Positions 3,573 to 61,602 of a stretch of 64,000 nt of DNA are shown here, one piece after another. Below the pieces are notes generated by a model. The model saw only the letters and a program-made list of their open reading frames with translations, had not been told where the DNA came from and did no database searches. The stretch's first letter is position 1; each line of letters begins with the position of its first letter. Source of the DNA: Candidatus Hadarchaeales archaeon (lineage in GTDB: Archaea; Hadarchaeota; Hadarchaeia; Hadarchaeales; Hadarchaeaceae); assembly GCA_038872135.1 (NCBI GenBank), contig JAVZGN010000002.1, forward strand, positions 41,368 through 105,367, in the 5' to 3' direction. The position numbers and the translations under genes are program-made.

Positions 3573-3577
3573 ACTTG

Positions 3578-5685: not shown

Positions 5686-5687
5686 CT

Positions 5688-7292: not shown

Positions 7293-7370
7293 CTACTTTG
7301 CCTCCCAAACAGGCATTCTCTCATCCTCTGTTAAAAATTTATGATTAAAAAACTGCCGCTCCTAAACGCT

Positions 7371-8600: not shown

Positions 8601-8715
8601 ACTCTGTGCACTTCTCCGTAGCCCAGACCGAGCCGTCAGTGGCCTCTATCGCATCCACGGGGCAGACGCTCACGCACGCCCCGCACCTCAGACAGAGCTG
8701 ACCGTTAACCTTCAT
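8539..8715 (-). CDS. 2x[4Fe-4S] ferredoxin (58 aa), not in ORF track
   Basis: Translated by eye: MKVNGQLCLRCGACVSVCPVDAIEATDGSVWATEKCTECGLCARICPVGAIEIARKRL. Two CxxCxxCxxxCP motifs. Its 3-prime end overlaps the GGR start region in another frame. Confidence 0.7.
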   Translation of the reverse strand: MKVNGQLCLRCGACVSVCPVDAIEATDGSVWATEKCTECGLCARICPVGAIEIARKRL

Positions 8716-41800: not shown

Positions 41801-44390
41801 CCCAATGCCTGGCGAAAATGTTGGTAGCTCGACTCCAACCTTCTCTTGGGCGGCCCCATTCGAAAACTCAACCCCGATAAAATACTATCTTTCCATCAGC
41901 GATAATGAAGACTTCCCATACGAGAACGAAAACTCTGGATGGATCTCCTCAACTTCTTGGATAGTACAATCTCCTCTCTCAGACGGCATCTGGTACTGGA
42001 GGGTGAAGGCAAGAGACAACGCCGGCAACGAGGGAGCATTCTCTACACCCAGAAAGTTCAGGGTTGATACGCTTCCACCCGAGAATGTTTCTCTGCTGGA
42101 GCCGGAAAATGGCACGACGGTAGGTGATAACACTCCACTGCTGAAGTGGTCTAGTGCGGTAGACAACTCCCTTCCGGTAAAGTATGTTGTGGTTGTAGCT
42201 CGCGACCCCGCCTTCGCAGATAATGTCATCTCCTCTCCTTGGCTCGACAATGAAAATTGGGAAATCCCACTGGGGCTCTTGGACAACACATACTATTGGA
42301 AGGTGAGGGCGAGAGATAACGCAGGAAACATCTTTGAAACGCCATCTTGGTGGTTCATCGTTGAAAATGCCTCGCCCTTCATGCCACAGCTCGTCAGGCC
42401 TGCAAACGGAGCATGGGAAAACGACAACACCCCGACCTTCAAATGGGAAAACGCATGGGACATTTCACAACCAGTGGAATATTTTGTGTGGCTCTCCACC
42501 GACAACCTCTTTGAAAACATTGTACTCACCAGTGGCTGGGTGGAGAACGAGAACTGGACGGTTCCGGCGGAAAATTCCCTCTCGGATAATGTAAAATATT
42601 ACTGGAGGGTTCAGGCAAAAGACAACACCGGAAAGCTCAGCGAGAATTCTGAGACATGGTGGTTCATCGTCGACGTGGTGGTTCCGCCAAGGATAAACCT
42701 CTGGTCGCCGCCTAACGACGCCGTCTTCGAGAAGCTCACGATCACCTTCACTTGGGAAAGTGTGACCGATAATTCTGGAGTAACCTATCACATAGAAATA
42801 GATAATGAGCCCAGCTTCTCTAGCCCACTTGTGGATAGTAGATATACCACCAACGCCGTCCTGCCAAGTTACACCTTCCAAAAAACAGGGTGGTACTACT
42901 GGAGGGTAAGGACGATAGACGGAGCTGGAAATATCGGTGAATGGTCGGACAACTGGGTGATTTTGATTGGTAGATGGACTTTTCTAGAGCGCTGGAACGA
43001 GATAACAATCATTAGCCAGCCCACGGCGTGGAAATGGATAGAATCATGGGGATTAACTATAAAGGCTCCAAGCGGCTGGACCTTGGTCGAGAGCTGGCAG
43101 GCCACAGCCGTCGGAGCAATCCGATGGAGAGTTGCCGAAAGCTGGTCACTGAGCATTAGGACTAGGCCCTACTACTGGACTAAGGTTGAGGCATGGGAGA
43201 ATGTGGCAACATTGAGAGGATACCCGATTCCAGTTTGGAGATTTGCTGAAAACTGGGGAGGGATATCAATCATTTCTCTCCCACGTGAATTTAGATTTGT
43301 TGAAACTTTCAATGCTCAGATAAGGGCTCCGGCGGAAATAATTGACTTCCTCACCGCCATTGAGCGGCCACCGCCAAAGTGGGAGGAAATAGAGAAGATG
43401 CATGCGACCTTTAGGGCAAAAGAGCCGCTGCCAGGAATCCCTGTGACCGTCGGAAGGGTGATGCCCGGAACTACTTCAACGGCAGATTTTTCCGCCTTCG
43501 ACATCCCAGTGATCAAGATTGAAATAACTCTTAAGCCAGACGCCCCTGCCACAGAGATCGCTCCGATCGTCCTCTCAGCCAAGGCCGTTGACAACATCCC
43601 AGGAATATCTGGTCCTCCGGGCGAAACATACAAATTCTTGGAATTTGGTGTGGATGGGATACCACCGGAATACATTCAGAACTTCAGGGTGCGGTTCAGG
43701 GTTGAAAAGAGGTGGCTTCTCGGGATGGATGAGAAAACTCTCGAGGTGGTGAGGCTGAGCGGCAATTGGGTGCGAGTACCTTTTGAACTAATTAGCTCAA
43801 CTGAAGATTACAACATATATGAAATGGCTGGCGATGTCTATTCGACCTTTGCGATAATAGCGCAGAAAAAGACGCTACCACTTCAAGCCCCGCCGGTCGT
43901 CTTGATTCCAACTGGAGAAGCCCCATCCCCAAGTCCCATTGGATTATTTGTGCTTCTCGGCATAGGCGGGATAGCAGTGGGGCTGATGTTCTATCGTTCT
44001 GTCGCGAAAATAAGAATTGGCGGACTTGAGAAAGAGCTTGAGAAGCTCCAAAAGGCGCCTCCGACAAAAAAGGTGGCGGTGAGAGGTGTAAGGATAACGC
44101 TTCCCAAAGTGGAAAAAATGGAGATTAAGAGGATTGCCAGAGCGATTTGGGGTCCACCGCCAATCCCGAGAGTTCCTCCGCCTGAAAGACGCCTGGCCCC
44201 GCCAGAAATCGCGGCTGTGGAAACTCTCGAGAAGTTCATCGCTGAAAGGAGAAAGAAGGCGCCGAAAATAGCGGTTGAAAAAATTGAAGAGGTGAGAAAA
44301 AAGCTGAGCAAGGAGGAGATTGAGGTTTTCAAGACCCTAGAAAAATTTGTTGGAAAGAGAAGGAAAGCCATGAAAAGAGGAGGTGGATGA
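32805..44390 (+). CDS. giant cell-surface protein (3,861 aa): signal-like N-terminus, unknown ~150-aa domain (x2), ~35-40 fibronectin-III-like modules, five blocks of a 16-aa Trp-periodic repeat, C-terminal TM anchor and basic tail
   Basis: Uninterrupted 11,586-nt ORF. Hydrophobic segment MVILILLSTFSPMLHLPLASAG (alternative ATG at 32964). Fn3-like modules end in ...YYW[RK]V[RK]A.DNAGN.S.WS....F.VDT.[AP]P. Many N-x-S/T sequons. C-terminal TM IGLFVLLGIGGIAVGLMFY followed by a K/R-rich tail. Confidence 0.8.
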   Translation: MVATIGKFRDGDWPPANYSGTVEDRRGAHSPQSRITNAKLNDVPLSEKALSISMVILILLSTFSPMLHLPLASAGSLVDNSTENFALGVHENTENIANRIRLKSGYTSGQFTSQIFDAGVWAHWETMNWVENEPFLLIQENDDVGAEPETLADGSLRRGEILGGSITDVRVLDGVYENIGENTEDNCLNWEHKIENITFGFENYVLKIRGYTGGDYENVGIYIWENQGATWGWRFIDNLTSTEKTIEWTIPRTSIENYLVSGAILIRYFENNTDATQTWVVVDLCILSGENRIFSEVKIQVRVSSDNVVWTGWAGPSGDDTTFFTSSPANLTPILDRRYIQYRVYFTSPSPSLSGGDGPTFGEVVINYSPVSPPSLQSPSNGSWTNDNTPTFDWSDVEDATEYHLLVDNDSNFSSPEINVLVASSQFTSATELPDATYYWKVRAKVGSDLSTAFSAPWTVNIATAPPTPPSLISPDNDVTLFVDQPLFRWTISTGVGAITYWLVIDNDQDFSSPIYNKTGISENSHVIENKLPENFTPYYWKVAAVDNIGNLSWSEWRKFELKVFPSSVVGQISPYWQTAPVSISVTASDNDGTIENVELWYRYSVDNSEWGPWTFYENRSSPPYSFTFNFPNGQGLYEFYSIAWDSRGNRENTPPTPDTACGFDNAAPPAPTLIQPENDAVIETRKPTFRWTSVTDLSGVTYNLIVDNENTLAPPHIYFKTGITENSHTTENSLDIGVYWWKIVARDAVGNENSENVFIFTLRLWNNVERWSGVIKTISGWMTAEVWSVTINAPYGVYGYLLVEEWSAVVNAPPPVFTIVESWTTTVASEISEWKVVESWTASIGSGGGWMLAESWMSTVTALPHIGWSQVETWSFTAVTLARWELVEGWNASITAAAYLGWPQVEMWSVTVDALPYVEWVQAEIWAETLTTSAQWFVCESFAADIVANVVSGWTFVETWTPTLTSVVLSGWTLDESWIATITAEILQPVLLLPLDGENTNNTNPTFDWEDNTLPIDNFEIQIDDDQDFSPPLVRWENTGATSQYSPGFLPDNLYWWRVRMWRGGVPGAWAQRTVRVDTLPPEKPSLLSPLDGENENDSAPNLRWSAPPENSFPLTYFVQISNSKYFEPENIATSAWVMEENWEVPPVLQENVWYWWRVLVKDNAGNTGDYSSARKFKIDTIAPPPPTVIWPENDGWTTTLPNLDWAPVVENSLPVVYFGEISLFPDFSGSPLRTISTLDDNWSVSPELSEGTYFWRLKVRDNAGNLGSWSQGFVFKVDNTPPTAPQPPFTPPNNGSAPTGLVQFQWAAASDSGSGVAKYAIQIDDEPNFNPPLVHENDNVVGTAYSCLLEFPKTYYWKVKAIDNVGNEGEWSETLSFFATTVWRSIESWTGTIATSAAYQQAESWVATIITVAQWTPIEFCVGTIATSASWKSVESWTATITTTATWQFTETWSGIIATAAAWRFAETWAGTIATAAQWQLVESWQVTITTSAQWQVVESWTGTITTSASWQQVESWTATIATAAVWQVVESWICTIKVGGEWKLAESWSVNIAPPADWNYIETWAAKIIAIIPAPIPVSPRNGENKNTLPTLRWDNLLPADNFQLQIDNNPDFSSPENDLTVFENFYTPPALQDNLWYWRVRTFRNNENSAWSTVWKFRIDRLAPGKPVLVSPSDGENINDNTPLFRWQAPPENSFPLVYTIQISTTSTFAPGTYNEFAVTSYEQEVGWMVPQENPLADNIYYWRVKARDNAGNEGAFSTPRKFRVDTVSPVITLISPANGETVSSRPTLSWSLVYAENTLPVVYNALISDTSTFEFSYENVKITENSYTTQPLDESVGTYYWKVCAWDNAGNWSGWSETRWFTVRTAWRQAESWNLMLTTSSQWNLAESWSAAATTSAEWRQVEAWGTVLSTTAKWSQVETWQATMVASASWQQVDGWAVTLITAANWLLAETWQGIATTTAKWFSTESWTGAVATVSIWQTIENWWAMVTAPVYHGWINAESWSGYVSSGGGWVPAEFWSATIEGWAFWKIVESWSDTINASAGWKTTETWQVQIYSPIPAPVLIFPPDGYNFSPSVGELVLKWDNSQPADNFEIQIDNDFDFSSPEVDDFTSTENFVVPSLPDNLYWWRVRTFRTGENSQWSEVWRFRIDNIPPAVPSLLAPSEGENINDNTPLLRWQAPPENSFPLRYRVQVATDKFFTNIVREALWTVTAENWEIPAENSLPDNMYYWRVAAKDNAGNYSMFSSYRSFRVDTLKPAVPSLTSPPHGAWIAFPSLTWSKVTDISLPLLYNLQIAYDNDFSHLVVNVELLDNSWSGPLDEGLYWWKVQAKDGAGNLSGWSENRKFIVDNAPPTKPVLSTPENSTDVNIGTITFGWQASDPGAGISKYWIQIDNEPDFDNTFFVHENQMVTENTYQYIISVSGRYYWRVRAIDGAGNIGEWSDNWNFFVYGWSSIESWMAMISGPSQWRNVESWNATIKTRAYIWEKLENWSASIQAPFLAGWSFVESWQVEFISVTVSWRGVESWRAIITGRVIAPVLLSPSNGLNTSQNPLTFRWENVHLADNYRIQIDNKSPVVAYENDNVGAEPETLVDGSLRRGEILGGSITDVMVLDGVYENIGENTEDNCLNWEHKIENITSGFENYVLKIKGYTEGDNENIFVYIWENDFGTWRWREIGTITSNETTIVWEMKYTNIEKYLMDGSIYVRYLENTPDLVQTVLHIDLCVLMENLENLTPPFLVDATSTDNFYTYTFPENGRYWWRVMAMVQGIVGDWSNIWTVRADTVAPQPPILISPIHHENVNDTTPLLRWQAPPENSLPVKFFVQVATDPTFNTIIRENWVVGEQWEVYPPLQENVYYWMVLAVDNAGNSSPPSPTWEFRVDITSPATPEPKAPRDGENLNDNTPELVWTSVWDDSRPVVYRIQVAYDEAFQFMVPGCDVYVYENTWTTPELPSERVYRWRVKAIDNAGNESGWSPTQRFRFDCSPPLPPSLISPMPGENVGSSTPTFSWAAPFENSTPIKYYLSISDNEDFPYENENSGWISSTSWIVQSPLSDGIWYWRVKARDNAGNEGAFSTPRKFRVDTLPPENVSLLEPENGTTVGDNTPLLKWSSAVDNSLPVKYVVVVARDPAFADNVISSPWLDNENWEIPLGLLDNTYYWKVRARDNAGNIFETPSWWFIVENASPFMPQLVRPANGAWENDNTPTFKWENAWDISQPVEYFVWLSTDNLFENIVLTSGWVENENWTVPAENSLSDNVKYYWRVQAKDNTGKLSENSETWWFIVDVVVPPRINLWSPPNDAVFEKLTITFTWESVTDNSGVTYHIEIDNEPSFSSPLVDSRYTTNAVLPSYTFQKTGWYYWRVRTIDGAGNIGEWSDNWVILIGRWTFLERWNEITIISQPTAWKWIESWGLTIKAPSGWTLVESWQATAVGAIRWRVAESWSLSIRTRPYYWTKVEAWENVATLRGYPIPVWRFAENWGGISIISLPREFRFVETFNAQIRAPAEIIDFLTAIERPPPKWEEIEKMHATFRAKEPLPGIPVTVGRVMPGTTSTADFSAFDIPVIKIEITLKPDAPATEIAPIVLSAKAVDNIPGISGPPGETYKFLEFGVDGIPPEYIQNFRVRFRVEKRWLLGMDEKTLEVVRLSGNWVRVPFELISSTEDYNIYEMAGDVYSTFAIIAQKKTLPLQAPPVVLIPTGEAPSPSPIGLFVLLGIGGIAVGLMFYRSVAKIRIGGLEKELEKLQKAPPTKKVAVRGVRITLPKVEKMEIKRIARAIWGPPPIPRVPPPERRLAPPEIAAVETLEKFIAERRKKAPKIAVEKIEEVRKKLSKEEIEVFKTLEKFVGKRRKAMKRGGG
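33222..33680 (+). repeat. copy 1 of intragenic duplication (unknown ~150-aa domain of the giant protein)
   Basis: About 90% nucleotide identity over the first ~230 nt with 40556..41012, including a 55-nt exact run gagaacaccgaggacaactgtctgaattgggaacacaagatcgagaacattacct. Confidence 0.8.
35095..35770 (+). repeat. W16 block 1: ~14 tandem 16-codon (48-nt) Trp-periodic repeats inside the giant ORF
   Basis: Protein repeats such as VESWTTTVASEISEWK / VESWTASIGSGGGWML / AESWMSTVTALPHIGWSQ... with Trp at i and i+6 in each 16-residue unit. Ends at ...ILQPVLLLP before the next Fn3. Confidence 0.75.
36950..37535 (+). repeat. W16 block 2: ~12 tandem 16-codon Trp-periodic repeats (cleanest block)
   Basis: WQFTETWSGIIATAAA / WRFAETWAGTIATAAQ / WQLVESWQVTITTSAQ / WQVVESWTGTITTSAS / WQQVESWTATIATAAV / WQVVESWICTIKVGGE / WKLAESWSVNIAPPAD... 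The 48-nt periodicity is visible in the DNA (tggcag...gaatc/gtgg...). Confidence 0.85.
38410..39000 (+). repeat. W16 block 3: ~12 tandem Trp-periodic repeats
   Basis: WRQAESWNLMLTTSSQ / WNLAESWSAAATTSAE / WRQVEAWGTVLSTTAK / WSQVETWQATMVASAS / WQQVDGWAVTLITAAN ... Ends at ...YSPIPAPV. Confidence 0.8.
40170..40430 (+). repeat. W16 block 4: ~5 tandem Trp-periodic repeats
   Basis: WSSIESWMAMISGPSQ / WRNVESWNATIKTRAY / IWEKLENWSASIQAPFLAG / WSFVESWQVEFISVTVS / WRGVESWRAIITGRVIAP. Confidence 0.75.
40556..41012 (+). repeat. copy 2 of intragenic duplication (unknown ~150-aa domain)
   Basis: See 33222..33680. Protein NDNVGAEPETLVDGSLRRGEILGGSITDVMVLDGVYENIGENTEDNCLNWEHKIENITSGFENYVLKIKGYTEGD... versus the N-terminal copy. 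Confidence 0.8.
42970..43345 (+). repeat. W16 block 5: ~8 degenerate Trp-periodic repeats
   Basis: WTFLERWNEITIISQPTA / WKWIESWGLTIKAPSG / WTLVESWQATAVGAIR / WRVAESWSLSIRTRPYY / WTKVEAWENVATLRGYPIPV / WRFAENWGGISIISLP... Confidence 0.7.
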
Positions 44391-45033
44391 GGTGGAGCCA
44401 GAATTTCGCCTGACGAGGGCGGGAAAAATTAAATGGAAGCTGAAGAAAAACTGGAAAGTTATCGCGGCAATTATTCTATCTATATCAATAGCGGTGGGAG
44501 TTTATCTCTCAACCCTCCAGCCATCCAAGATTTCCAGAAGAGCTAAGATTACTGCTCCCTATGTTGAATTTGAAAGTAGAAGGGGGTTCTTTGCCGTGCG
44601 TAAATACCAGGAGTCTGGAATCGAAAACATTTACATCGTTAAATTTCCCAATTTTGACCCGACCAGGGATGCGATGTCTCAGCTGGAAAATGTTGATGCA
44701 ATCATTTCGAGTAGCGGGCAAACTGTGGATGTTTCGGACAATGCCCTTTTTGCTATAGTTGTGGCCGTTAGAGCAAAGGCTCCAGACAACATCGCATATG
44801 TGGTCAAAGAGAATATGTGGGTCTGGCTCGGGGCTAGTGGAGCATTCACCATCCCGAACTCTCTGGCTCCAGACTGGAAAGAATATGTTTTTGAGAGTTC
44901 TGGATATGGAACTGCGAATGGTTACATGAGAGTAAATGTGATCTGGGACAACGATGGCGAGGGATATATACTGTACGCAGGGCAACATCTCTTCATAGAC
45001 AACATCGTCTTGAAATTTTTCAGTCCAAGATAG
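44383..45033 (+). CDS. single-pass membrane protein (N-terminal TM anchor, extracellular beta-rich domain); paralogue of 58128..58724
   Basis: 216 aa. TM WKVIAAIILSISIAVGVYLSTL. Shared motifs with the paralogue: ENIYI[VM]K, [SP]GQTVD[VI], YVFE[SN]SGYGTANGY[MV]R[VI]N. Start overlaps the giant ORF stop by 8 nt. Confidence 0.6.
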   Translation: MDEVEPEFRLTRAGKIKWKLKKNWKVIAAIILSISIAVGVYLSTLQPSKISRRAKITAPYVEFESRRGFFAVRKYQESGIENIYIVKFPNFDPTRDAMSQLENVDAIISSSGQTVDVSDNALFAIVVAVRAKAPDNIAYVVKENMWVWLGASGAFTIPNSLAPDWKEYVFESSGYGTANGYMRVNVIWDNDGEGYILYAGQHLFIDNIVLKFFSPR

Positions 45034-50606: not shown

Positions 50607-50978
50607 ATGGTGGATGTCGTAATAGTTTCTCAGGATGGAGTTATCTTGGTGAAAAGAAAAAAGGAGCCTTTTAAAGGGAAGTGGGCAATTCCCGGGGGTT
50701 TTGTTGAGTATGGGGAAAGGGTTGAAGATGCTGCAAAGAGGGAGGCCAGGGAAGAAACTGGGCTTGAAGTTGAGATTCTGAGAATTCTCGGGGTCTACTC
50801 AGATCCAGATAGGGACCCGCGAGGGCACAGCGTGAGCGTATGCTATCTCGCAAAACCCGTGGGTGGAGAGCTGCGAGGCGGGAGTGATGCCGCAGATGCC
50901 AGGGTTTTTCGCAAAATTCCATGGAAAAAATTGGCTTTCGACCACGCAAAGATATTAAAGGATGCGGGCTTCAGATGA
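50607..50978 (+). CDS. NUDIX hydrolase
   Basis: Trimmed to ATG 50607 (MVDVVIVSQDG). Nudix box GKWAIPGGFVEYGERVEDAAKREAREETGL. Confidence 0.8.
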   Translation: MVDVVIVSQDGVILVKRKKEPFKGKWAIPGGFVEYGERVEDAAKREAREETGLEVEILRILGVYSDPDRDPRGHSVSVCYLAKPVGGELRGGSDAADARVFRKIPWKKLAFDHAKILKDAGFR

Positions 50979-50982
50979 AACG

Positions 50983-51312
50983 ATGGAATTCTGCAAGAAG
51001 TGTGGATCTCTGATGCTCCCGAGAAAAACCGAAGAAGGGATATTCCTAGAATGCACATCCTGTGGAAAAATTGAAAAAGCGAAAGATACCAAAAACTACA
51101 GGGCGATTGAAAAGAGTGTGGCGGCTGAAAAGGAGATTCCAGTCATTGAAGAGGAAGCTCCCGCCACCCTGCCCATAACAAAGGTTACATGCCCGAAGTG
51201 CGGAAACAACCGGGCATACTGGTGGATCAAACAAACCAGGGCAGCGGATGAACCCTCCACGAGATTCTACAAATGCACAAAATGCGGGAAGGTTTGGAGG
51301 GAGTATGCGTAG
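50983..51312 (+). CDS. tfs: transcription factor S / RNA polymerase subunit M (TFIIS-type zinc ribbon)
   Basis: MEFCKKCGSLM ... CTSCG N-terminal ribbon and C-terminal CPKCGNNRAYWWIKQTRAADEPSTRFYKCTKCG with the acidic hairpin. Confidence 0.85.
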   Translation: MEFCKKCGSLMLPRKTEEGIFLECTSCGKIEKAKDTKNYRAIEKSVAAEKEIPVIEEEAPATLPITKVTCPKCGNNRAYWWIKQTRAADEPSTRFYKCTKCGKVWREYA

Positions 51313-51323
51313 GTGATTTTTCC

Positions 51324-51683
51324 ATGAGCTATCCCCTTTCAACGGCTCCGGCGATTCCAAAAAAGATATCAGAGATTACAGCCTCTTCTGAGAGGGTGAG
51401 GGTCTTCGGAGTTGTTGTCGCCAAGGGGGAGGGGGAGCTTTTGATTGATGATAGATCAGGACAGATAAATGTGGTTTTTGAGGATCCTCAGACGATAAAA
51501 GATGTAAAAGTTCAATCGATGGTGCGGGTCTTTGGCGTCCCAATGGTTACGGAAGAGGGGGTGGAGCTGAGGGGGGAAATCATTCAAAAGCTTGATGGAC
51601 TAAAGATAGAGCTTTATGAAGAAGTGCAGAGGGAATGGAGGAGATTGGAGGAAGAAGTGAGGCGGTTGAGTGGTAAGAGTTAG
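51324..51683 (+). CDS. OB-fold nucleic-acid-binding domain protein, putative
   Basis: ATG 51324. VRVFGVVVAKGEGELLIDDRSGQINVVF resembles tRNA_anti-type OB folds. C-terminal coiled-coil. Confidence 0.4.
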   Translation: MSYPLSTAPAIPKKISEITASSERVRVFGVVVAKGEGELLIDDRSGQINVVFEDPQTIKDVKVQSMVRVFGVPMVTEEGVELRGEIIQKLDGLKIELYEEVQREWRRLEEEVRRLSGKS

Positions 51684-51684
51684 A

Positions 51685-52419
51685 ATGAAGAGCCCGGAAG
51701 TCTGGAAGACATTCGTGAAGTCGGTTGTGAACCTCATAGGAGAGGGGGCTATGAAATTTGAGAGCGATGGAGTGAAGATGAAGGCAATAGACCCCTCCCG
51801 CGCCGTCCTCGTTGACTTCCATCTCAAAAAAGATGCTTTTGAAGCATATGAGGTGAAGGAATCTAAACTTGTGGGGGTGAAATTCGACGAGCTGGAAAAG
51901 GTTCTCTCTAGAGCAAAATCTGATGATGAGCTGATAATGGAGCTGGATGAAACCCAAGGAAAGCTTGCGATAACCTTCAAGGGAGCCTCAACGAGAAAAC
52001 TCAGCATCCCTTTGATCTCTGTGGATGAGAGGGAACTCCCTGAGCCGAAGATTCAGTTCACGGCGGAGGTTGAGGTTACTGGCGAAGTCATCCAGGATGG
52101 ATTGAAGGATGCCGAGATGGTTGGAGAGACAATAAAGTTCATTGTGGATAAAGATGAGTTCCAAATGATCGGGGAGGGAACAGAGGGGAGGTCTGAACTG
52201 AAGCTGTCCAAGGGGGACAAGGGGCTTGTGAAGATATCGGTCCAGCAGCCGGCGAAATCGAAGTTTGGGCTGAAAAACATTGCAGAGATAACGAGGGGAG
52301 TGAAGGGGTCTGATGTCGTCAAAATAAGCCTTGGGACAGACATTCCCCTGCAGCTTGACCTCCCGCTGGAAAATGGAAAGCTGAGATTTTTTGTCGCCCC
52401 CTACATTGATGTTGAGTAG
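51685..52419 (+). CDS. pcn: DNA polymerase sliding clamp PCNA
   Basis: ATG 51685 (MKSPEVWKTFVKSVVNLI...), 244 aa. Two-domain PCNA pattern, with a C-terminal acidic end. Confidence 0.85.
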   Translation: MKSPEVWKTFVKSVVNLIGEGAMKFESDGVKMKAIDPSRAVLVDFHLKKDAFEAYEVKESKLVGVKFDELEKVLSRAKSDDELIMELDETQGKLAITFKGASTRKLSIPLISVDERELPEPKIQFTAEVEVTGEVIQDGLKDAEMVGETIKFIVDKDEFQMIGEGTEGRSELKLSKGDKGLVKISVQQPAKSKFGLKNIAEITRGVKGSDVVKISLGTDIPLQLDLPLENGKLRFFVAPYIDVE

Positions 52420-52463
52420 TTCTGAAAGTTAAAAGCCGACCAGTAGATGATAATCGGGAGAAA

Positions 52464-53750
52464 ATGCTGCCGGGAGAATATCGGGCGGTCATAGATCCTT
52501 TTTCAGAAGAAGCTAGGGAGATTCTCAAGAGTGTCCCCTTGGAGAGCCTGCCAGCCGATGTTGTAGAGATGGCGGTGAAAAGGGTTGGATGGAGTGGAAG
52601 GGAGGGGATGATCGAAGCAAACATCGATGCAATAAAAGCTGATGTTCTCTCCTTTCACCTCATGTGCATGGGGATAGCCTCGGTTTCCCATCCCTACTCG
52701 AGAGAGGTTGCCCTTGCCAGCGAAGCCACAAGAAATGTGATCAGATATAGGGTTTCCAAGCTTTTCGGGATGGGGGAGGAGAAGTTTTGCATAGAAACCA
52801 TGGCAAAATATCTCAACCTGATTGATGTTGAAAAGGGAGAGAAATACAGGGTTGGGGATGCAGAGATTCCAGATGCAGATGTCTTTAGGATCAGAGACAA
52901 AAGGATGGAGAAAGATGGGAAGGAGGTTGATCCGGCATTTCTTTCCTGGTATTTTCCCCGATATGCTGTGAGATGGACAGATCTGGCGCCGATCATGAGG
53001 AGGGGGAAAATAGACCTAACGGACCTTTACCTGATGAATGGATGGGCAGTGCTCACGACCAGAGACCTTTGGGATGTGTATGCCGACTTTATAAGCGTTA
53101 AAACTGAGGAGCATATCCAATCAATTTATGAGAAGATTCAGCCGGCGGGCGAAGGGGGAAGCGCTGGTGAATCTCTCTTCATAGAAGTGGGGGGAAGAAT
53201 CTCTGCCCTAGTTCCGAAAACTTCGAGTGTTGGGGGGTGGTGGGCCGGAGCTGGAAAGCTAAGACCGGAGTTTTTCCCGCCCTGCATCTTGGCAACACTT
53301 GAGGGGGTTGGTAGTGGGATGAGGAACTTTGCTATAACGATGCTGCTGACGACATTTCTCTCTTATGCGAGGGTTGCACCCTCAGGGAAGGTGGTTACAA
53401 AAATGGCTGATTTTATCGACGACATTTCGGTTGTAACAGAGGAGATTGCGCCGATCATCTTCCAGGCGGCCGAGAGATGCAATCCACCCCTGTTTAAAGA
53501 TCAACCACAGGAGAAGGCAAACGTTTTTTACCACATGGGGTTTGGGATGACTACTGCGCCCAAGCTCTCGGACTCTGGAAAATCGAAGTGGTACCGGGTG
53601 CCGAATTGCTCGAAAATTCAGATGTCGACGCCAACGCTTTGTAGGCCGGATGAACTCTGCAGGAGGGTGAAGAATCCCCTCACCTACTACTTCAGGAAGA
53701 AAGCTGAGAGCTTCAGGAGGGGCAGTCAAACCAGTGGTGTCGGGGATTGA
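52464..53750 (+). CDS. priL: DNA primase large subunit PriL
   Basis: 428 aa. C-terminal 4Fe-4S domain cysteines (FFPPCILATLEG ... PNCSKIQMSTPTLCRPDELCRRVKNP). Confidence 0.75.
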   Translation: MLPGEYRAVIDPFSEEAREILKSVPLESLPADVVEMAVKRVGWSGREGMIEANIDAIKADVLSFHLMCMGIASVSHPYSREVALASEATRNVIRYRVSKLFGMGEEKFCIETMAKYLNLIDVEKGEKYRVGDAEIPDADVFRIRDKRMEKDGKEVDPAFLSWYFPRYAVRWTDLAPIMRRGKIDLTDLYLMNGWAVLTTRDLWDVYADFISVKTEEHIQSIYEKIQPAGEGGSAGESLFIEVGGRISALVPKTSSVGGWWAGAGKLRPEFFPPCILATLEGVGSGMRNFAITMLLTTFLSYARVAPSGKVVTKMADFIDDISVVTEEIAPIIFQAAERCNPPLFKDQPQEKANVFYHMGFGMTTAPKLSDSGKSKWYRVPNCSKIQMSTPTLCRPDELCRRVKNPLTYYFRKKAESFRRGSQTSGVGD

Positions 53751-54130: not shown

Positions 54131-55414
54131 GTGGAAAAACAAGAAATAATTCCAAGGGATATTTTAACAAAATTCGAGAAATTGCTAGAAAGACGAGAGG
54201 CTCTTGCGATAAAAGGTCCCCGACAATCGGGGAAGACAACTCTTTTGAAAATCTTGGCGAGAAGACTTGAGAACGCAGGCAAAGTCGTTTTTCTGAATTT
54301 CGAGGACCCCGATGTGCTCGAAGCCTTTGAGAGGGACCCCAAGGGTTATGTGCGGAGCTTCATGCTCGGTCCCGAAAGGCATTACTTCTTGATGGACGAG
54401 TTCCACTACATCAGTGAACCTGGAAAGAAACTCAAGTTACTCTACGACACCTTCGAGAATGCGAAGTTCATCGTCACCGGTAGTTCCTCCCTAGAACTCG
54501 GTGGGGCGATGGCGAAATTTTTGGTGGGTCGAGTGTTTTTCTTTGAGTTGCTTCCCTTCAGCTTCCACGAGTTCCTAGTGGCAAAAAACGAGAGATTGGC
54601 TAAGATTTATGAGAAAAAGAACGAAGCCATCAAAGCCTTCATGCTGGGAGAAGAAGTAGAACTGGAAGAAGATATCTTCGTGAAAGAGCTTGAGCCCCTT
54701 TTCCTTGAGTACCTCACTTACGGCGGCTATCCGGCTGTGGTCTTGGCTAACGATGCGGAGACAAAGCGAATGATCCTGAAAGGCATATACGATACATACA
54801 TTTCCAAAGATGTGATTGAGTTTTTGAAATTCACCGACGCGTTCAAGTACAGAGATACTATCAGGATCCTAGCAGCGTCGGTTGGAGGATTGCTAAACTA
54901 CCAAGCGGTGGGCTCGGCGGTCCAAAGCTACTTCAAGGAGCTGAAGCGGATCCTCTCGATTCTCTCCGAAACGTACGTGATAATCTTGCTCCGACCATTC
55001 TCAAGGAACCCGAGAACCGAGCTAAGGAAAAGCCCAAAGGTCTATTTCTTTGACTTGGGGCTCAGGAACTATGTGCTAAACAATTTTAACCCACTCGACA
55101 GGAGGGCTGATGCCGGAGCGATGGTTGAAAACTTCGTGCTGCTGGAGCTAATGCGTGCCTTCCCAGCTGAGTCCTTAAATTACTGGCGGACGATAGCAAA
55201 AGCCGAGGTAGACTTCGTGCTGAGGGTCGGGGAAAAATTGATACCGATAGAGGCCAAATATCAAAGTTTCGCGGAACCAAAAATCTCAAGAAGCCTCCGG
55301 AGCTTCATCCACACTTACAGCCCAGAGCGCGCTTTGGTTGTGACCCGCGATAGGTGGGCGAGGAGTGAAATTGATGGAACAAAAGTGCTTTTCGCTCCCG
55401 CCTGTTACATTTAA
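54131..55414 (+). CDS. AAA+ ATPase with C-terminal DUF4143 domain (AAA_14/DUF4143 family)
   Basis: 427 aa. Walker A GPRQSGKTTLLK, Walker B FLMDEFHY, C-terminal DUF4143-like region (WRT...EVDFVL). Confidence 0.85.
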   Translation: MEKQEIIPRDILTKFEKLLERREALAIKGPRQSGKTTLLKILARRLENAGKVVFLNFEDPDVLEAFERDPKGYVRSFMLGPERHYFLMDEFHYISEPGKKLKLLYDTFENAKFIVTGSSSLELGGAMAKFLVGRVFFFELLPFSFHEFLVAKNERLAKIYEKKNEAIKAFMLGEEVELEEDIFVKELEPLFLEYLTYGGYPAVVLANDAETKRMILKGIYDTYISKDVIEFLKFTDAFKYRDTIRILAASVGGLLNYQAVGSAVQSYFKELKRILSILSETYVIILLRPFSRNPRTELRKSPKVYFFDLGLRNYVLNNFNPLDRRADAGAMVENFVLLELMRAFPAESLNYWRTIAKAEVDFVLRVGEKLIPIEAKYQSFAEPKISRSLRSFIHTYSPERALVVTRDRWARSEIDGTKVLFAPACYI

Positions 55415-58125
55415 CGATGCACAAGCTTGGATTCTTCCTCATGACCTAATCTTAGGCCGCTTGAGATTTCGGGGAGACTCTTCTTCCCGAGCCTGAGGTA
55501 CCTCCACACAACAGCTAAAACAACGATTGAAAGGACTATGAAGGCGGCCACAATGAGGTAGGGGGACGAAACACCGGCTAGAGGAACTGTCGGCATCGTA
55601 GAAATTGTGATGGTGTGAACGGAGAAGTAAGGGATTGAGACGATAACTTGGATCCCTCTGCCTCCCTTCACCAAATAATATTCTGGTAAACCATTGTCAT
55701 TTGTCGGGTCGAGGGCATCTACATAATCATCTGCAAGGGCTATTTCAACGTCATTGAGGAGGACCCTAGCAGTCCATCCCGCCGGGAGCACTCGATTTTC
55801 AACATTTATCACAACTGTTGTGCCATTTTCCATCGAGCTGATGTTCTCCACGACGAGCTCTACTTTTTCACCGAATACTACCGTGCCGAGTGTTATCCTG
55901 AGGTCCTTGTGCTCGTATCCCCTTGAAATTCCCGGTTTTTCAGCTTCAATTCTGATAGCCACGACCGCTCCGAGATTTCCCCTTAGGAAGGCATTTTCCA
56001 GCTCCCTCAATTTCTCCTCTTCAACTGGAACTCCGATATCAGCAGCCTGCTCGATAAAGTTGTTTTCCATGACTTCCATTTTCTGCTCTACCAGCTGGCT
56101 CACCACCGTAGCAGTGGAAATAGCAGTGGTAGCAGAATAGATGTTGTCGCCGGCAAAAAATGCGGTTATAGTGGCAGTTGTCTGATTTTCCACAATTGGG
56201 GCTGTGAAGATGACCGTGGCCTGCCCAGAGTTGTCAGTACTGCTGGTGAAGTAGCTGAGGCTTCCGAGGGTTGTTGACCAGGAGATGATTTTGCTGGAAA
56301 GTGGAAGCCCTCGCGAGGTGAGCTTGACGATCAAAGTCTCGGTCTTTCCAGATCCTATTACGAAACTTGCCGGGGAAATCGTGAGGGTTGTGGGAGCCGG
56401 GGTTATCGTCACCGTCAGACTCGCATTGCTCGAATAATAGCTCGCATCCCCGGCGAAAGAAGCCGTGACCACAACATTTTCGGATGCCGCGACACCTTGG
56501 GCAATGTAAATAACTGAGGCATTGCCATTCCCATCGGTTGTAGTGGCGGTCGCCGAGAGAACACCTTTTGCAACACTCCAGGAAATGGTCTTTCCTGAAA
56601 GGACCAACCCATTCGCGTCTTTGAGGGTAGCCGTCAGCATCACCGAATCGCCGGGTAAAATGCTCAGGCTAGAAGGAGCTATCGTTAAAAAGGTGGAGAT
56701 TCTTGAGGGGGGAGGGGAGGGCGTTGTAATTCTCGCGCTCCGGCTTTCGACCATCTGAAACCAAGTTGTTGTCGTAACAGTTGCACTCCTGCTCTCAGCC
56801 AGAGTATACCACAAAGCTGTTGTGATTGTAGCAGCCCAATTTTCGGCCAGCTGAAACCATGCTGGTTCTTTTGGCCCTATTTGCACGGATGGCATAGGAT
56901 CTATCGACTTTCGAAGAATTTTCCAGACATCACGCCTGTAATTCCCATCGTAACCTCCCATCACCCAGACTGCATCTTTGAAAACAACTGATGAGTGTTC
57001 ATATCTCGCGCTCCATGTGACTCCGGTCAATTTCGTCCAGCTTGAGCCATTTTCTGAATACCAAATGTCGGAAAGATATTCCGCCCACAACTCCCCATTG
57101 CCACCAATAACCCACATCCGGTTGTCAAAAACAACTGAAGTGTGATATCTCCTGGGAGTCCAGCCGCCATTTCCAGTCGCTTGGAACCAGTTTTCACCAT
57201 CTGAAGAGTACCAGACATCATTCTTGAAAGCACCGCTTGAGTATCCTCCAATCACCCACATCCTGTTGTTGAAGACCACCGAGGAATGGCTGTGGCGCGG
57301 GCTCCAAGGGGCTGCTGAAGTAACCTGACACCAGTTAACACCATCACTAGAATACCAGACATCATTCTTGTAGTTGCCATCATAACCTCCGATTACCCAG
57401 ATTTTACCGGCAAAAACAATCGAAGTGTGGCCCCATCTCGCCGACCATCCTGGAGAAGATGTTGCGAGTATCCAGTTTTCGCCATTCTCCGAATACCAGA
57501 CCTCAGAGTCTGGGCCACCGATTACCCACATCCGATTGTTGAAAACCACCGATGTGTGATTTCTTCGCGAAGTCCATCCCGCATTGTCAACAACTAGCAT
57601 CCAGTTAACTCCATCGGCTGAACACCAGACATCATTTTCTGCGTTTTCAGCCCCTCCTCCAATCACCCAGATTTTATTATCAAATACGAGGGAAGTGTGG
57701 GCATACCTTGGAGACCAGCCGGCATCTGCCGTCGCCTGAACATCAGCATACGGAAGAATAGTGTTCTCCCAGCTGCTCACATTTGTGGCCGTGGGATTTC
57801 CATAGTAAACGTAAATCGTGTTGTCGGAATTTTCAGGCCTCCGCACCCAAATAGTCGCGTTGTCTGGGGTGTAGTTCTCGACCCAGAAATTGAGAAGGCC
57901 GAAATTATCGTTCTCCAGAAACCTTAGATCTCTGAAGTCTGGTTGCATCTCAGCGTAGAAGGGGAGAATTATCTTCAGATGAATATTCTCGGGATGAGGG
58001 GAAATTGTGATGGCCCTCCTCCTCGTCCAACTCTCATCCCACCATCCGGCGGCTGCTGCGTAGGGAGAACTTAGAAGCATCGACAAGAGAAAAATCACTA
58101 AAAACGCCCGCGAAAACCGTTGCAT
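55411..58125 (-). CDS. cell-surface protein: signal peptide, DUF2341-like domain, six-blade Kelch-type beta-propeller, 3 W16 repeats, Ig-like (Big) domains, C-terminal TM anchor
   Basis: Trimmed to ATG 58125 (MQRFSRAFLVIFLLSMLLSSPYAAAAG). That ATG sits 2 nt after the stop of 58128..58724. Contains WWDESWTRRRAITI (DUF2341-like) and six repeats W.[PA]R..H[TS]S[VLI]VF.N..WVIGG......ND[VI]WYS.DG.NW. C-terminal TM YLIVAAFIVLSIVVLAVVW. Confidence 0.75.
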   Translation of the reverse strand: MQRFSRAFLVIFLLSMLLSSPYAAAAGWWDESWTRRRAITISPHPENIHLKIILPFYAEMQPDFRDLRFLENDNFGLLNFWVENYTPDNATIWVRRPENSDNTIYVYYGNPTATNVSSWENTILPYADVQATADAGWSPRYAHTSLVFDNKIWVIGGGAENAENDVWCSADGVNWMLVVDNAGWTSRRNHTSVVFNNRMWVIGGPDSEVWYSENGENWILATSSPGWSARWGHTSIVFAGKIWVIGGYDGNYKNDVWYSSDGVNWCQVTSAAPWSPRHSHSSVVFNNRMWVIGGYSSGAFKNDVWYSSDGENWFQATGNGGWTPRRYHTSVVFDNRMWVIGGNGELWAEYLSDIWYSENGSSWTKLTGVTWSARYEHSSVVFKDAVWVMGGYDGNYRRDVWKILRKSIDPMPSVQIGPKEPAWFQLAENWAATITTALWYTLAESRSATVTTTTWFQMVESRSARITTPSPPPSRISTFLTIAPSSLSILPGDSVMLTATLKDANGLVLSGKTISWSVAKGVLSATATTTDGNGNASVIYIAQGVAASENVVVTASFAGDASYYSSNASLTVTITPAPTTLTISPASFVIGSGKTETLIVKLTSRGLPLSSKIISWSTTLGSLSYFTSSTDNSGQATVIFTAPIVENQTTATITAFFAGDNIYSATTAISTATVVSQLVEQKMEVMENNFIEQAADIGVPVEEEKLRELENAFLRGNLGAVVAIRIEAEKPGISRGYEHKDLRITLGTVVFGEKVELVVENISSMENGTTVVINVENRVLPAGWTARVLLNDVEIALADDYVDALDPTNDNGLPEYYLVKGGRGIQVIVSIPYFSVHTITISTMPTVPLAGVSSPYLIVAAFIVLSIVVLAVVWRYLRLGKKSLPEISSGLRLGHEEESKLVHR
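56715..56865 (-). repeat. three units of the same 16-residue Trp-periodic repeat as in the giant protein
   Basis: WFQLAENWAATITTAL / WYTLAESRSATVTTTT / WFQMVESRSARITT, between the Kelch propeller and the Ig-like domains. Confidence 0.7.
56890..57725 (-). repeat. six tandem Kelch-like blade repeats (~130-140 nt each) within the surface-protein gene
   Basis: Recurring protein units ...W[ST][PAS]R..H[TS]S[VLI]VF[NDAK]..[MI]WVIGG... visible as DNA periodicity. Confidence 0.75.
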
Positions 58126-58127
58126 GA

Positions 58128-58724
58128 TTAGCCCCATAGCCATAGACTTACAGTAAATCCTGCATAAGAGCCAGCGGGCAACTTCCATCCCGTTCCATTA
58201 TTGTCGAACACTGCATTTATCCTCACATATCCGTTGGCCGTCCCATACCCGGAGTTTTCAAAAACATATTCAATCAAGTCGGTTGAGTTATCATGCCAGC
58301 TGAAGCCTGATGTCCATTGCAACTCAACCTTTACATTTTCTTTTGAAGCGTAGGCTGGTGGATCTCCATCCAAATTTATTGCATCTGCCCTCACAGCCGG
58401 CACCACATCGAAGGGGGTCTCATAGGGGATATCAACAGTCTGACCGGGCCCAGTTATTACATCTAGACAATAGTTTGTATTTCCCGCATATTGACCAAGC
58501 CAGCTATTTTTATCATATCCAGAACCATGCTTCATTATATAGATGTTTTCAAACCCATCGGTGTTTTCTGAGATAAAAGAGTATCCACTTCCGCTCCAGA
58601 CGGCAACGAGTCTCCACCGAGGTCCCTGAACAATCGATTCTTTGGCAGGGAGATATGAAGTGATAAGTAAAACAGCGATTACCAAAGTAGCTAAAATTCC
58701 TGCAGCCTGCCATCTTCCAATCAT
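58128..58724 (-). CDS. single-pass membrane protein; paralogue of 44383..45033
   Basis: 198 aa. N-terminal TM WQAAGILATLVIAVLLITSYL. Shares ENIYIMK, GPGQTVDI and YVFENSGYGTANGYVRINAVFDNNG with the other copy. Stop is immediately adjacent to the start of the downstream surface-protein gene. Confidence 0.6.
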   Translation of the reverse strand: MIGRWQAAGILATLVIAVLLITSYLPAKESIVQGPRWRLVAVWSGSGYSFISENTDGFENIYIMKHGSGYDKNSWLGQYAGNTNYCLDVITGPGQTVDIPYETPFDVVPAVRADAINLDGDPPAYASKENVKVELQWTSGFSWHDNSTDLIEYVFENSGYGTANGYVRINAVFDNNGTGWKLPAGSYAGFTVSLWLWG

Positions 58725-58941: not shown

Positions 58942-61602
58942 ATGGAAAAGATGATTTATTTCTTTGAAGAAGCCGATGGAACCAACAAAAGACTGCTGGG
59001 TGGAAAAGGAGCAGGGCTTTGCACGATGGCTCAGCTGGGACTGCCTGTTCCCCCGGGTTTTGTGATTACCACTGAAGTCTGCAGAAGATACTATGAAGAG
59101 GGGGGAAAATTCCCAGAAGGTTTGCTGGAAGAGCTTGCCCGAGCGATGGAGCGACTGGAAAAGCTGACCGGAAAAAAATTTGGTGATCCAAAAAATCCCC
59201 TCCTCGTTTCCGTGAGATCGGGTTCGATGCTTTCAATGCCGGGGATGATGGACACTATTTTGAACCTCGGACTCAACGATGCAGTTGCTGAAGGACTCGC
59301 TCAGCTCTCTGGGGACGAAAGATTCGCCCTAGACGCCTACAGGAGGTTCATTCAGATGTTTGGAAAAATCGTGATGGGGGTTGACGGCAAGAAATTTGAC
59401 GAGATTTTTGAGGAGCAGAAAAAGAAGAGGGGAGCCAAAGCTGACACCGAACTTACAGTGGAGGACCTCAGAGAAGTGATTCAGAAGTTCAAGCAGCTTA
59501 TAAAGGCGGAAACTGGAAAAGATATCCCTTCTGAACCTTTCGAGCAGCTGAAGATGGCGGTTGGGGCAGTCTTCAGATCCTGGAATAACCAGAGGGCAAT
59601 TGAGTACAGGAACTTCTACAAAATCCCCCATGACCTCTACACCGCAGCGAACATCGTCACGATGGTCTTCGGAAATATGGGGGAGAACTCTGGAACTGGG
59701 GTGGCTTTCACCAGAAACCCGTCAACTGGTGAAAAGGAGATTTATGGGGAGTTTCTCTTTAACGCCCAAGGGGAGGATGTTGTCGCTGGGATAAGAACCC
59801 CGCTGAAGATATCCGAGCTGAAGCTCCGCAACCCAGAGATCTACCGGCAGCTTCAGGAAACTTCTGAAAAACTGGAAAAACACTACAAGGACATGCAGGA
59901 CATGGAGTTCACGGTTGAGCGCGGGAAATTCTACATGCTCCAGACAAGAGCGGGAAAGAGAACTGCGCAGGCGGCCGTCAAAATTGCAGTGGATATGGCG
60001 GAGGAGGGGCTAATAACAAAGGAAGAAGCCATAAGAAGGATAGAACCAGCGCAGCTAGAGCAGCTCTTCTTCAAGCAAGTGGATCCAAGGGCAAAGGTGA
60101 AAAAGATTGCAAAAGGACTGAATGCAAGCCCTGGGGCCGCGGTGGGGAAGGTTGTGTTTGATGCTGAGAGGGCGAAGGAACTGGCAAGGAACGGGGAGAA
60201 GGTGATTCTTGTGCGACCTGAGACAAGCCCAGACGATGTTGGCGGAATAATCGCTTCAGCCGGAGTTCTGACATCAAGGGGCGGATTTACATCCCATGCC
60301 GCCGTTGTCACGAGGGGGCTTGGAAAACCTGCAGTAGTGGGATGCGAGGCAATAGAAGTGAATGTGAGCGAGAAGTTCTTCAGGGCGGGAGATGTTGTCG
60401 TCAGAGAAGGCGACATCATTACAATCAATGGAAGCACAGGAGATGTTATTCTTGGGGAGGCTCCGCTCATCGAGCCAAAGATGTCGGAGGAAGTTATCAA
60501 ACTTCTTAAGTGGTGTGATGAGATGAAGAGACTGCAGAACTGGGCTAACGCCGACACTCCCCAAGACGCCAAAAAGGCGAGAGAGCTCGGAGCCCAGGGG
60601 ATAGGCCTCTGTAGAACAGAACACATGTTTTTTGGTGAGGAGCGACTACCAATCTTCCAGCAGGTGATTTTGGAAGAGGACCCAGAAAAAAGAAAACAGA
60701 TCCTGGCAAAGCTCCTGGAGTTCCAAAAGGAGGATTTCAAGAAGATTTTGAAGGAAATGGACGGGTTACCAGTGATCATAAGACTGCTCGATCCCCCCTT
60801 GCACGAATTTCTGCCCAGTCATGATGAGCTGGTTCAGGAAGTCATTGTCAGGAAGATGGGTGGAGGAAAAGATGAGAAGCTGAAGGCTGTAGAAAATCTT
60901 CTTAGAAAAGTTGAGGACCTGAGGGAAGCCAATCCTATGATGGGGCTGAGGGGGTGCAGGCTAGGCATCACCCACCCAGAAATAAATGAAATGCAGGTCA
61001 GAGCAATTTTTGAAGCTGCATGCGAACTGAAACTTGAGGGCTACAACCCGAAGCCGGAAATAATGATCCCAATAGTTGCTCATGTGAATGAGTTGAAGGT
61101 TGTAAGAGAGCAGCTGGAGAAGGTGGCGAAAGAAGTGATAGAAGCGAAAGGAGTGAAAGTCAACTACAAATTTGGGACGATGATAGAGGTTCCGAGGGCG
61201 GCTTTGACTGCGGACGAGATAGCTCAAGAGGCGGAGTTCTTCTCTTTTGGAACTAATGATCTCACCCAGATGGTTTTTGCCTTCTCTAGGGATGACGCCG
61301 AAAGAAAATTCCTCTTCCCTTATGTTGAGAAAAAAATTCTCCCAGCCGATCCATTCCAAACACTTGACCGGGAGGGGGTGGGAAAGCTAATGAAAATAGC
61401 CGTTGAGCTGGGAAGGAAAACTAGGCGGGATCTTGAGATAGGGATATGCGGTGAGCATGGGGGAGATCCGGCATCGATAGAATTCTGCCATGAGATTGGG
61501 CTGAACTATGTTTCCTGCTCTCCATTCAGATTACCGGTGGCAAGGCTTGCGGCGGCTCAGGCAGCTTTAAAAGTGATGGCGGAAAAAGAGAGATATCTAT
61601 AG
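58942..61602 (+). CDS. ppdK: pyruvate, phosphate dikinase
   Basis: 886 aa. N-terminal YFFEEADGTNKRLLGGKGAGLCTM, phospho-His domain GGFTSHAAVVTRGLGKPAVVGC, C-terminal PEP-utilising TIM barrel (GLCRTEHMF ... NDLTQ ... CGEHGGDP). Confidence 0.9.
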   Translation: MEKMIYFFEEADGTNKRLLGGKGAGLCTMAQLGLPVPPGFVITTEVCRRYYEEGGKFPEGLLEELARAMERLEKLTGKKFGDPKNPLLVSVRSGSMLSMPGMMDTILNLGLNDAVAEGLAQLSGDERFALDAYRRFIQMFGKIVMGVDGKKFDEIFEEQKKKRGAKADTELTVEDLREVIQKFKQLIKAETGKDIPSEPFEQLKMAVGAVFRSWNNQRAIEYRNFYKIPHDLYTAANIVTMVFGNMGENSGTGVAFTRNPSTGEKEIYGEFLFNAQGEDVVAGIRTPLKISELKLRNPEIYRQLQETSEKLEKHYKDMQDMEFTVERGKFYMLQTRAGKRTAQAAVKIAVDMAEEGLITKEEAIRRIEPAQLEQLFFKQVDPRAKVKKIAKGLNASPGAAVGKVVFDAERAKELARNGEKVILVRPETSPDDVGGIIASAGVLTSRGGFTSHAAVVTRGLGKPAVVGCEAIEVNVSEKFFRAGDVVVREGDIITINGSTGDVILGEAPLIEPKMSEEVIKLLKWCDEMKRLQNWANADTPQDAKKARELGAQGIGLCRTEHMFFGEERLPIFQQVILEEDPEKRKQILAKLLEFQKEDFKKILKEMDGLPVIIRLLDPPLHEFLPSHDELVQEVIVRKMGGGKDEKLKAVENLLRKVEDLREANPMMGLRGCRLGITHPEINEMQVRAIFEAACELKLEGYNPKPEIMIPIVAHVNELKVVREQLEKVAKEVIEAKGVKVNYKFGTMIEVPRAALTADEIAQEAEFFSFGTNDLTQMVFAFSRDDAERKFLFPYVEKKILPADPFQTLDREGVGKLMKIAVELGRKTRRDLEIGICGEHGGDPASIEFCHEIGLNYVSCSPFRLPVARLAAAQAALKVMAEKERYL

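Follow-up and report, generated by a model that had tools for sequence, protein, structure and literature searches.

A tryptophan-rich 16-residue repeat shared by differently built surface proteins of Hadarchaeota

A Kelch surface protein and its three-unit stub

Within a 64-kb stretch of contig JAVZGN010000002.1 from a Candidatus Hadarchaeales archaeon (the window; all coordinates below are positions in it), two genes encode surface proteins of different build that carry the same short, tryptophan-rich repeat, here called W16. One, on the plus strand, encodes a giant protein with long W16 arrays; the other, on the minus strand and the subject of this analysis, encodes a protein with a Kelch beta-propeller, behind which a stub of three W16 units is found.

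The minus-strand open reading frame (ORF) at 55411..58188 comprises 925 amino acids (aa). Translation probably begins at Met22 (58125), one codon past the upstream gene's stop, for a 904-aa product with a signal-peptide-like N-terminus; the first-pass annotation, made without database searches, had described a protein of about 905 aa at 55411..58125. The architecture proposed there, comprising DUF2341, six Kelch blades, immunoglobulin (Ig)-like domains and a transmembrane (TM) anchor, is one on which Pfam and AlphaFold2 (AF2) agree. The features of this gene and of the giant gene are as follows, where pLDDT is the predicted local distance difference test of AF2 and the bit scores of units refer to a hidden Markov model (HMM) built from 26 regular units of the giant protein, applied to the whole Kelch protein and to its isolated linker.

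55411..58125, minus strand: gene for the DUF2341-Kelch-W16-Big_1 surface protein, 904 aa plus stop (ORF, Pfam and AF2)
57727..57939, minus strand: DUF2341 domain (Pfam PF10102, E=2.3e-13, 50.8 bits, gathering cutoff 23.4)
56911..57690, minus strand: six-bladed Kelch beta-propeller (Kelch_1, E=1.2e-32, 6 stretches; AF2 pLDDT >90)
56860..56910, minus strand: junction segment RKSIDPMPSVQIGPKEPA, leading from the propeller to the W16 stub (motif common to other W16 proteins)
56812..56859, minus strand: W16 unit 1, WFQLAENWAATITTAL (14.0 bits whole protein, 18.0 bits linker)
56764..56811, minus strand: W16 unit 2, WYTLAESRSATVTTTT (0.8 bits whole protein, 4.8 bits linker; second Trp replaced by Arg, AGG)
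56722..56763, minus strand: W16 unit 3, WFQMVESRSARITT, 14 aa, truncated (-0.9 bits whole protein, 3.2 bits linker; second Trp replaced by Arg, CGG)
56692..56721, minus strand: Pro-rich linker PSPPPSRIST after the stub (read from the sequence; 60% identity kept in orthologs)
56101..56691, minus strand: two Big_1 Ig-like domains forming a stalk (Pfam PF02369, 50.4 bits, cutoff 34.9, 2 stretches)
55492..55560, minus strand: C-terminal TM helix, the anchor (hydrophobic stretch; AF2 helix 856-878)
32805..44390, plus strand: gene for the giant surface protein, 3861 aa, with about 45 W16 units in five arrays
35100..35768, 36957..37532, 38418..38999, 40173..40424 and 42975..43343, plus strand: the W16 arrays of the giant protein (repeat units)

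By Foldseek, the propeller is an ordinary six-bladed Kelch domain of the kind found in LZTR1, NS1-BP and KLHDC2 (E about 1e-19). Both Ig domains were modeled by AF2 with a pLDDT of about 90 or above, and they are followed in the model by two helices, a beta-domain and the C-terminal hydrophobic helix; the protein ends in this plain TM helix and then a charged tail. The Kelch protein is a secreted protein with a DUF2341 domain and a C-terminal membrane anchor. Scanning it against NCBIfam added nothing specific to the Pfam result, and neither PGF-pre-PGF nor PGF-CTERM was matched in NCBIfam at E<0.1 by the Kelch or the giant protein; some W16 relatives carry the Joint Genome Institute label 'PGF-pre-PGF domain-containing protein'.

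The stub occupies 56722..56859 of the minus strand, between the propeller and the Big_1 domains, and consists of three in-register units; the span of 56715..56865 given earlier brackets them. On the giant-unit HMM the isolated linker reached a full score of 22.1 bits, and the core matches of the units begin at residues 446, 462 and 478 of the 925-aa ORF, an exact 16-aa spacing. When 1212 six-frame segments of the window were scored, the Kelch ORF was the top match after the giant protein (E=0.0031), and none of 2000 shuffles of the Kelch protein reached the 14.0 bits of its first unit (maximum 12.5). Score, rank and shuffle control together uphold the claim of the first-pass annotation that W16 occurs in a second, differently built surface protein. 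Its count of three units between the propeller and the Ig-like domains holds for their position, register and joint score, with a reservation for units 2 and 3, which are degenerate: the profile comparison that it proposed as a check was significant for unit 1 and for the set as a whole, and not for units 2 and 3 taken alone.

The degeneracy follows a pattern. The Glu of the repeat is kept in all three stub units and the second Trp in unit 1 only, the AGG and CGG codons of the Arg residues that replace it in units 2 and 3 each being one step from TGG. In all three units the spacing from the first Trp to the Glu is one residue wider (W-x4-E-x-W) than in the consensus of the giant (W-x3-E-x-W). 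Neither the shifted register nor the Arg variant is foreign to the family, because both are present in the array of P0149, a protein fragment that closely resembles a portion of the giant; this array holds WYRLAESWNATITTTA, in the register of the stub, and also WFIAESRSATVAANPYLG, with Arg as in units 2 and 3. The string 'AESRSATV' is common to stub unit 2 and the P0149 array, and 26 of the 46 positions of the stub match P0149. The stub fits the profile of the window's giant better (22.1 bits) than the family-wide profile (6.7 bits). The stub units are shown by these comparisons to be diverged homologues of the W16 repeat. A recent transfer of DNA between the giant and Kelch genes was also considered and rejected; the best nucleotide identity between their units is 0.67, no higher than among giant units.

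Besides P0001, an identical protein from a Candidatus Hadarchaeales metagenome-assembled genome (MAG), three distinct full-length orthologs of the Kelch protein were found (P0002, P0003 and P0005; 47-67% identity). All three have two or three W16-like units at the same site, between a junction of the form 'RK....P.P....G.EE' and a Pro-rich linker. P0005 carries a canonical pair, WGAVESWTGTITATGG and WGAVESWSGTITT, that score 15-20 bits. In P0002 there are three units of 18 aa each, at 8-10 bits against the family profile, and in P0003 three degenerate ones that are barely recognisable. Across the four orthologs, the first Trp and the Glu are present in 11/11 stub units. Using the C-terminal half of the Kelch protein as query returned Big_1 and anchor fragments only and no further linker-bearing orthologs. 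The first giant array (35100..35768), P0149 and the P0002 stub all contain an 18-aa unit variant ending '..[AL]P[YH].G'; giant arrays and Kelch-family stubs therefore have both unit subtypes in common.

The surroundings of the gene are better conserved than the gene itself. Flanks at 50660..53722 and 58942..61602, which encode PCNA, the primase large subunit and pyruvate phosphate dikinase, share 80-83% DNA identity with the Hadarchaeales MAG GCA_046294655.1, whereas the Kelch gene has no blastn match to that genome (locus L002) at E<=1e-20 and 67% identity at the protein level. Judged from these sequence identities, the Kelch surface protein evolves much faster than its neighbour genes.

The W16 family and its partner domains

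W16 has no counterpart in the collections that were searched. No Pfam or NCBIfam model covers the arrays, either in the giant and Kelch proteins (E<0.1) or in 63 other W16 proteins (E<0.001), and no repeat or beta-helix family is among the Pfam and NCBIfam matches of any of these proteins. A profile of 20 W16 arrays matched no PDB sequence (best E=0.09), and a word-indexed protein search with a 192-aa array of the giant returned nothing at E<=1e-3, including no match to itself, the giant evidently being absent or its repeats filtered. Literature searches on surface repeats of Hadesarchaea found nothing.

The extent of the family was established with a three-unit profile, searched against 1.84 billion protein cluster representatives. 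It retrieved 178 representatives at E<=1e-3, 63 of them at E<=1e-30, with arrays of roughly 2 to 37 units. Neighbouring units are spaced by 16 aa in 577 of 854 pairs, with minor classes of 15, 17 and 18 aa. The consensus of 1012 units reads W-x-L-[IV]-E-[TS]-W-[TS]-G-T-[VI]-x-A-P-A-x, and its best-conserved positions are Trp1, Glu5 and Trp7, which rank above the aliphatic positions. Where the source name gave an organism, it was Hadesarchaea or Hadarchaeales in every case but one (P0146). Consistent with this distribution, a scan with a degenerate three-unit DNA pattern, covering one genome per species in 185,579 species, yielded 86 stretches, more than 50 of which were confirmed as real W16. 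All confirmed stretches with a phylum name belong to Hadesarchaea or Hadarchaeota, a few others being labelled only 'archaeon', 'uncultured archaeon' or 'Methanobacteriota archaeon', and several Hadarchaeota MAGs have W16 on four to five separate contigs each.

Candidates from elsewhere were rejected. Single pattern matches in bacteria and in genomes outside Hadarchaeota were attributed to chance, none containing a unit of at least 8 bits, and the three that were read (two bacterial, one from Poseidoniaceae) proved to be out-of-frame or junk repeats. In IMG/VR, eight stretches had a single match and none a tandem W16 array by profile; the seven frames that were read are W/E-rich junk.

W16 is, on this evidence, an uncatalogued sequence family seen only in Hadarchaeota. 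The label of P0146, the W16 protein assigned to a Deltaproteobacteria MAG, speaks against this restriction. This protein (2905..6723 of locus L089) contains DUF2341, Laminin_G_3 and about 23 W16 units. Next to its gene, a DnaA-like replication initiator (7191..8117; phrog_5484, E=6e-23) and an integrase (8077..8685; phrog_1, E=1.5e-10) are encoded on a short contig with many ORFans; the contig probably represents a mis-binned mobile element or provirus.

The domains found together with W16 are varied and include Big_13, Ig_Rha78A_N, Big_7, DUF2341, Laminin_G_3, CBM96, PKD and Pilin_N. Among the 150 best W16 proteins, 11 are matched by the DUF2341 region of the Kelch protein and none by its propeller. 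A recurrent order of parts emerges in six proteins lacking the Kelch propeller (P0128, P0171, P0232, P0244, P0260 and P0270), each of which has a DUF2341 head, a junction motif and then W16 units. The motif, R[KR][YF]xxxEPxxxxGxEE, precedes W16 in these six as well as in P0002, P0003 and P0005. Several of the six also have a LamG-like domain in the head, and in four of them a stub of 3-5 units is followed by Ig, PKD or other domains and an anchor. The window protein has this common junction and stub, with a Kelch propeller in place of the LamG-like domain. From the recurrence of junction and stub it follows that the stub is a regular component of one class of surface proteins with a DUF2341 head and no accident of the Kelch gene.

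The view that W16 is a portable, lineage-specific repeat module is supported by these data. That it is no peculiarity of one gene, as first suggested, is evident from the giant and Kelch proteins of the window, the 178 representatives outside it and the variety of partner domains. The wording of the first-pass annotation, which spoke of a module portable among the surface proteins of 'this organism', is supported over the 64 kb that were checked, and the claim for many genes rests on related genomes.

The head of the Kelch protein invites comparison with other DUF2341 proteins. Large proteins of this kind are inferred to be adhesins (Makarova et al. 2016, PMC4858521), the proposed roles being that of a pilus-tip adhesin for those encoded in archaeal type IV pilus loci and that of a PilY-like adhesin for those of bacteria. 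DUF2341 stands at the N-terminus of the Kelch protein and of at least 11 W16 proteins, which in this respect resemble the adhesin candidates, and an archaeal Pilin_N domain is found in one W16 protein; unlike the candidates for the pilus tip, the Kelch protein is anchored by a C-terminal TM helix of its own. Among the eight scanned neighbours of the two W16 genes of the window, none gave a pilus-related Pfam match, no search for type IV pilus genes having been made across the window.

In the giant protein, the five arrays alternate with many Ig-like domains. Its gene also contains two copies of a module of about 150 aa with no Pfam match (33222..33671 and 40557..41006, plus strand); their first 180 nt are 92-93% identical, after which identity falls to about 55%, a pattern that suggests partial gene conversion. 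A module resembling this one comes after W16 arrays in three Hadarchaeota loci (L029, L035 and L058). Past the TM segment, the C-terminal tail of the giant (43900..44387, plus strand) is rich in Lys, Glu and Pro and has two similar 'TLEKF...RRK' segments.

Predicted fold and possible roles of the stub

The fold of a long array was modeled by AF2 from residues 1385-1576 of the giant (the 12 units of the array at 36957..37532), with an alignment of 20 in-register arrays. The best model, with a pLDDT of 83.8 and a predicted template modeling score (pTM) of 0.77, gives each unit a strand-rich segment of 10-13 residues and a turn of three residues. A long W16 array is accordingly predicted, with the moderate confidence of such a model, to fold into a right-handed parallel beta-helix, or beta-solenoid, in which each unit makes one coil, and the indel classes of the family fit a loop at unit positions 14-16. 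The closest known structures are the right-handed parallel beta-helix rods known from ice-binding proteins and surface adhesins: MpAFP region IV (3p4g) and the Ag43 and TibA autotransporter passengers (7kob, 4q1q). The Pfam Beta_helix family (PF13229, PbH1) likewise consists of repeats that form a beta-helix in secreted proteins, as W16 is predicted to do; in contrast to this and other catalogued surface repeats, W16 arrays are matched by no Pfam or NCBIfam model.

A beta-helix rises by about 4.8 Å per coil. At one coil per unit, this general value gives about 58 Å for the 12-unit array and about 14 Å for a three-unit stub, and a long array would form a rigid rod growing by about 4.8 Å with each unit. 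The stub, if it folds like the long arrays, would stand between an N-terminal head (DUF2341 with a Kelch or LamG-like domain) and the Pro-rich, Ig-like stalk leading to the membrane anchor, where it may serve as a short structural neck that fixes the spacing of head and stalk. The recurrence of junction plus W16 in six DUF2341-headed proteins and in the Kelch orthologs argues for such a neck, as do the Pro-rich linker and Ig domains behind the stub. The W16 module is most likely a structural neck or rod. The fuller proposal, in which W16 would form beta-helical rods in the giants and a short neck in DUF2341-headed proteins, the window stub being a partly degenerate example of the latter, is judged slightly more probable than not.

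Several observations weigh against that proposal. The array alignment was built from repeat proteins, the five AF2 models span pLDDT 64-84, and AF2 tends to build solenoids from short repeats. For the stub itself (residues 423-468 of 904), AF2 gave a pLDDT of 26-37 and no secondary structure, which, at an alignment depth of four sequences, counts as weak evidence in either direction; the stretch with this pLDDT and no secondary structure covers residues 407-473. Two or three coils may also be too few for a beta-helix to be stable alone. The stub is the fastest-diverging of the ordered segments, at 28-36% identity compared with 61-85% for the propeller, the ortholog stubs differ by entire units and in their period (16 or 18 aa), and the second Trp is missing from 5 of the 11 stub units of the four orthologs; this divergence fits relaxed constraint.

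Much of the same evidence, namely the low pLDDT without secondary structure, the low identity with whole-unit indels, the loss of the second Trp and the barely recognisable units of P0003, would be expected if the stub were a decaying W16 remnant, now a flexible Thr/Ala-rich linker without a fold of its own. That explanation is unlikely, if still a serious one. It has to account for the retention of the first Trp and the Glu in every stub unit despite 28-36% identity, for the canonical units of P0005 and the units also kept by P0002, and for a separate Pro-rich linker that already lies behind the stub; the combination of junction and W16 with canonical units in at least six other protein families is hard to explain for a disordered spacer.

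W16 might instead be a trimeric fibre repeat, its segments acting as trimerisation and shaft elements. The consensus of the triple beta-spiral (PMC3150272) has 15 positions, a to o, of which c, e, g, k and m are hydrophobic and j holds the Pro or Gly of a turn. With the shafts of adenovirus fibre and reovirus sigma1, W16 shares repeats of about 15-16 residues, alternating hydrophobic residues, a Gly/Pro turn and a variable loop, and like them it would be the shaft that links a globular binding head to an anchor. Leu3, Trp7, Val/Ile11 and Ala13 fall on positions c, g, k and m, so that four of six key positions fit, the conserved Gly lies in the turn, and a trimer is beyond the reach of a monomer AF2 run. 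The invariant Glu, however, falls on hydrophobic position e, the Gly on i and not j, and the period is 16 and not 15; the monomer is modeled as a solenoid with moderate confidence (pTM 0.77), and the five arrays of the giant alternate with Ig-like domains, which are normally monomeric folds. A triple beta-spiral is consequently regarded as improbable.

Slightly less probable again is a role as a binding surface, in which a ladder of Trp and Glu would hold a glycan or other W16 segments and the stub would be a docking site and not a spacer. Trp together with an acidic residue is typical of sugar-binding sites, and Trp1, Glu5 and Trp7 are indeed conserved above the aliphatic positions. The stub and the giant units share a T/A-rich flavour, reflected in the 22.1 bits on the window profile against 6.7 on that of the family, but common descent can explain it. 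A paralogous small partner gene lies beside both W16 genes of the window, but such a partner is enriched and not obligate (6 of about 18 loci; see below), and the second Trp is dispensable in the stub.

That the likeness of the stub to W16 is a chance feature of a Thr/Ala-rich linker is hardly credible, since the non-significance of units 2 and 3 alone and the 6.7 bits on the family-wide profile stand against 0/2000 shuffles, the best non-giant match in the window and an exact 16-aa spacing, and the reading is already contradicted by the canonical units at the same site in an ortholog and the junction-plus-W16 architecture of other proteins.

Paired membrane-protein genes and the place of W16 in Hadarchaeota

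Both W16 genes of the window have a gene for a small membrane protein, termed SP, at their side.

58128..58724, minus strand: SP, a 198-aa membrane protein upstream of the Kelch gene (no Pfam match; conserved partner)
44383..45033, plus strand: SP paralog, 216 aa, overlapping the stop codon of the giant gene (no Pfam match)

The two genes are paralogs (41% identity over 132 aa, E=1e-22) of a family with no Pfam match and no sequence relative in the PDB, built of an N-terminal TM segment and a conserved domain of about 150 aa. In L001 and L002 a copy lies upstream of each Kelch ortholog, and several GTDB loci have one close to a W16 gene. When metagenomes were scanned for SP first, 30 loci were obtained, about 18 of them with at least 3 kb of flank; a W16 ORF lay within 3 kb in 6 of these 18 or so, one such ORF having 78 units. 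In two loci of the scan a large ORF with no W16 carried the SP domain as a C-terminal fusion, and no W16 was seen in the remaining loci. The pairing of SP and W16 genes is enriched and not obligate, and it hints that the paired SP gene encodes a dedicated accessory factor.

A more elaborate possibility, that W16 segments and SP proteins form a surface assembly specific to Hadarchaeota, in which stubs would dock on the giant rods by beta-strand stacking or bind SP, is considered very improbable. If it were true, a shared scaffold would carry interchangeable Kelch and LamG heads, functionally comparable to cohesin and dockerin or to curli nucleation.

For the module as such, a beta-helical rod or neck, as predicted for its fold and considered likely for its role, is of an already known kind; surface proteins with rods or necks made of repeats are familiar, and no major concept is changed. 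To structural biology, W16 offers a compact candidate for a 16-residue beta-helix coil with an unusual Trp-Glu-Trp signature.

Its interest lies further in the organisms that carry it. Hadarchaeota are a widespread phylum of subsurface archaea, and literature searches found no description of their cell surface proteins; by the abstract of a 2024 study (PMC10811742), no member was in culture until that work. W16 makes up a large share of the biggest surface proteins of this phylum and is reused in short form in DUF2341-headed, adhesin-like proteins. A W16 profile would therefore aid the annotation of giant genes now labelled 'hypothetical' and may serve as a marker for Hadarchaeota contigs in metagenomes.

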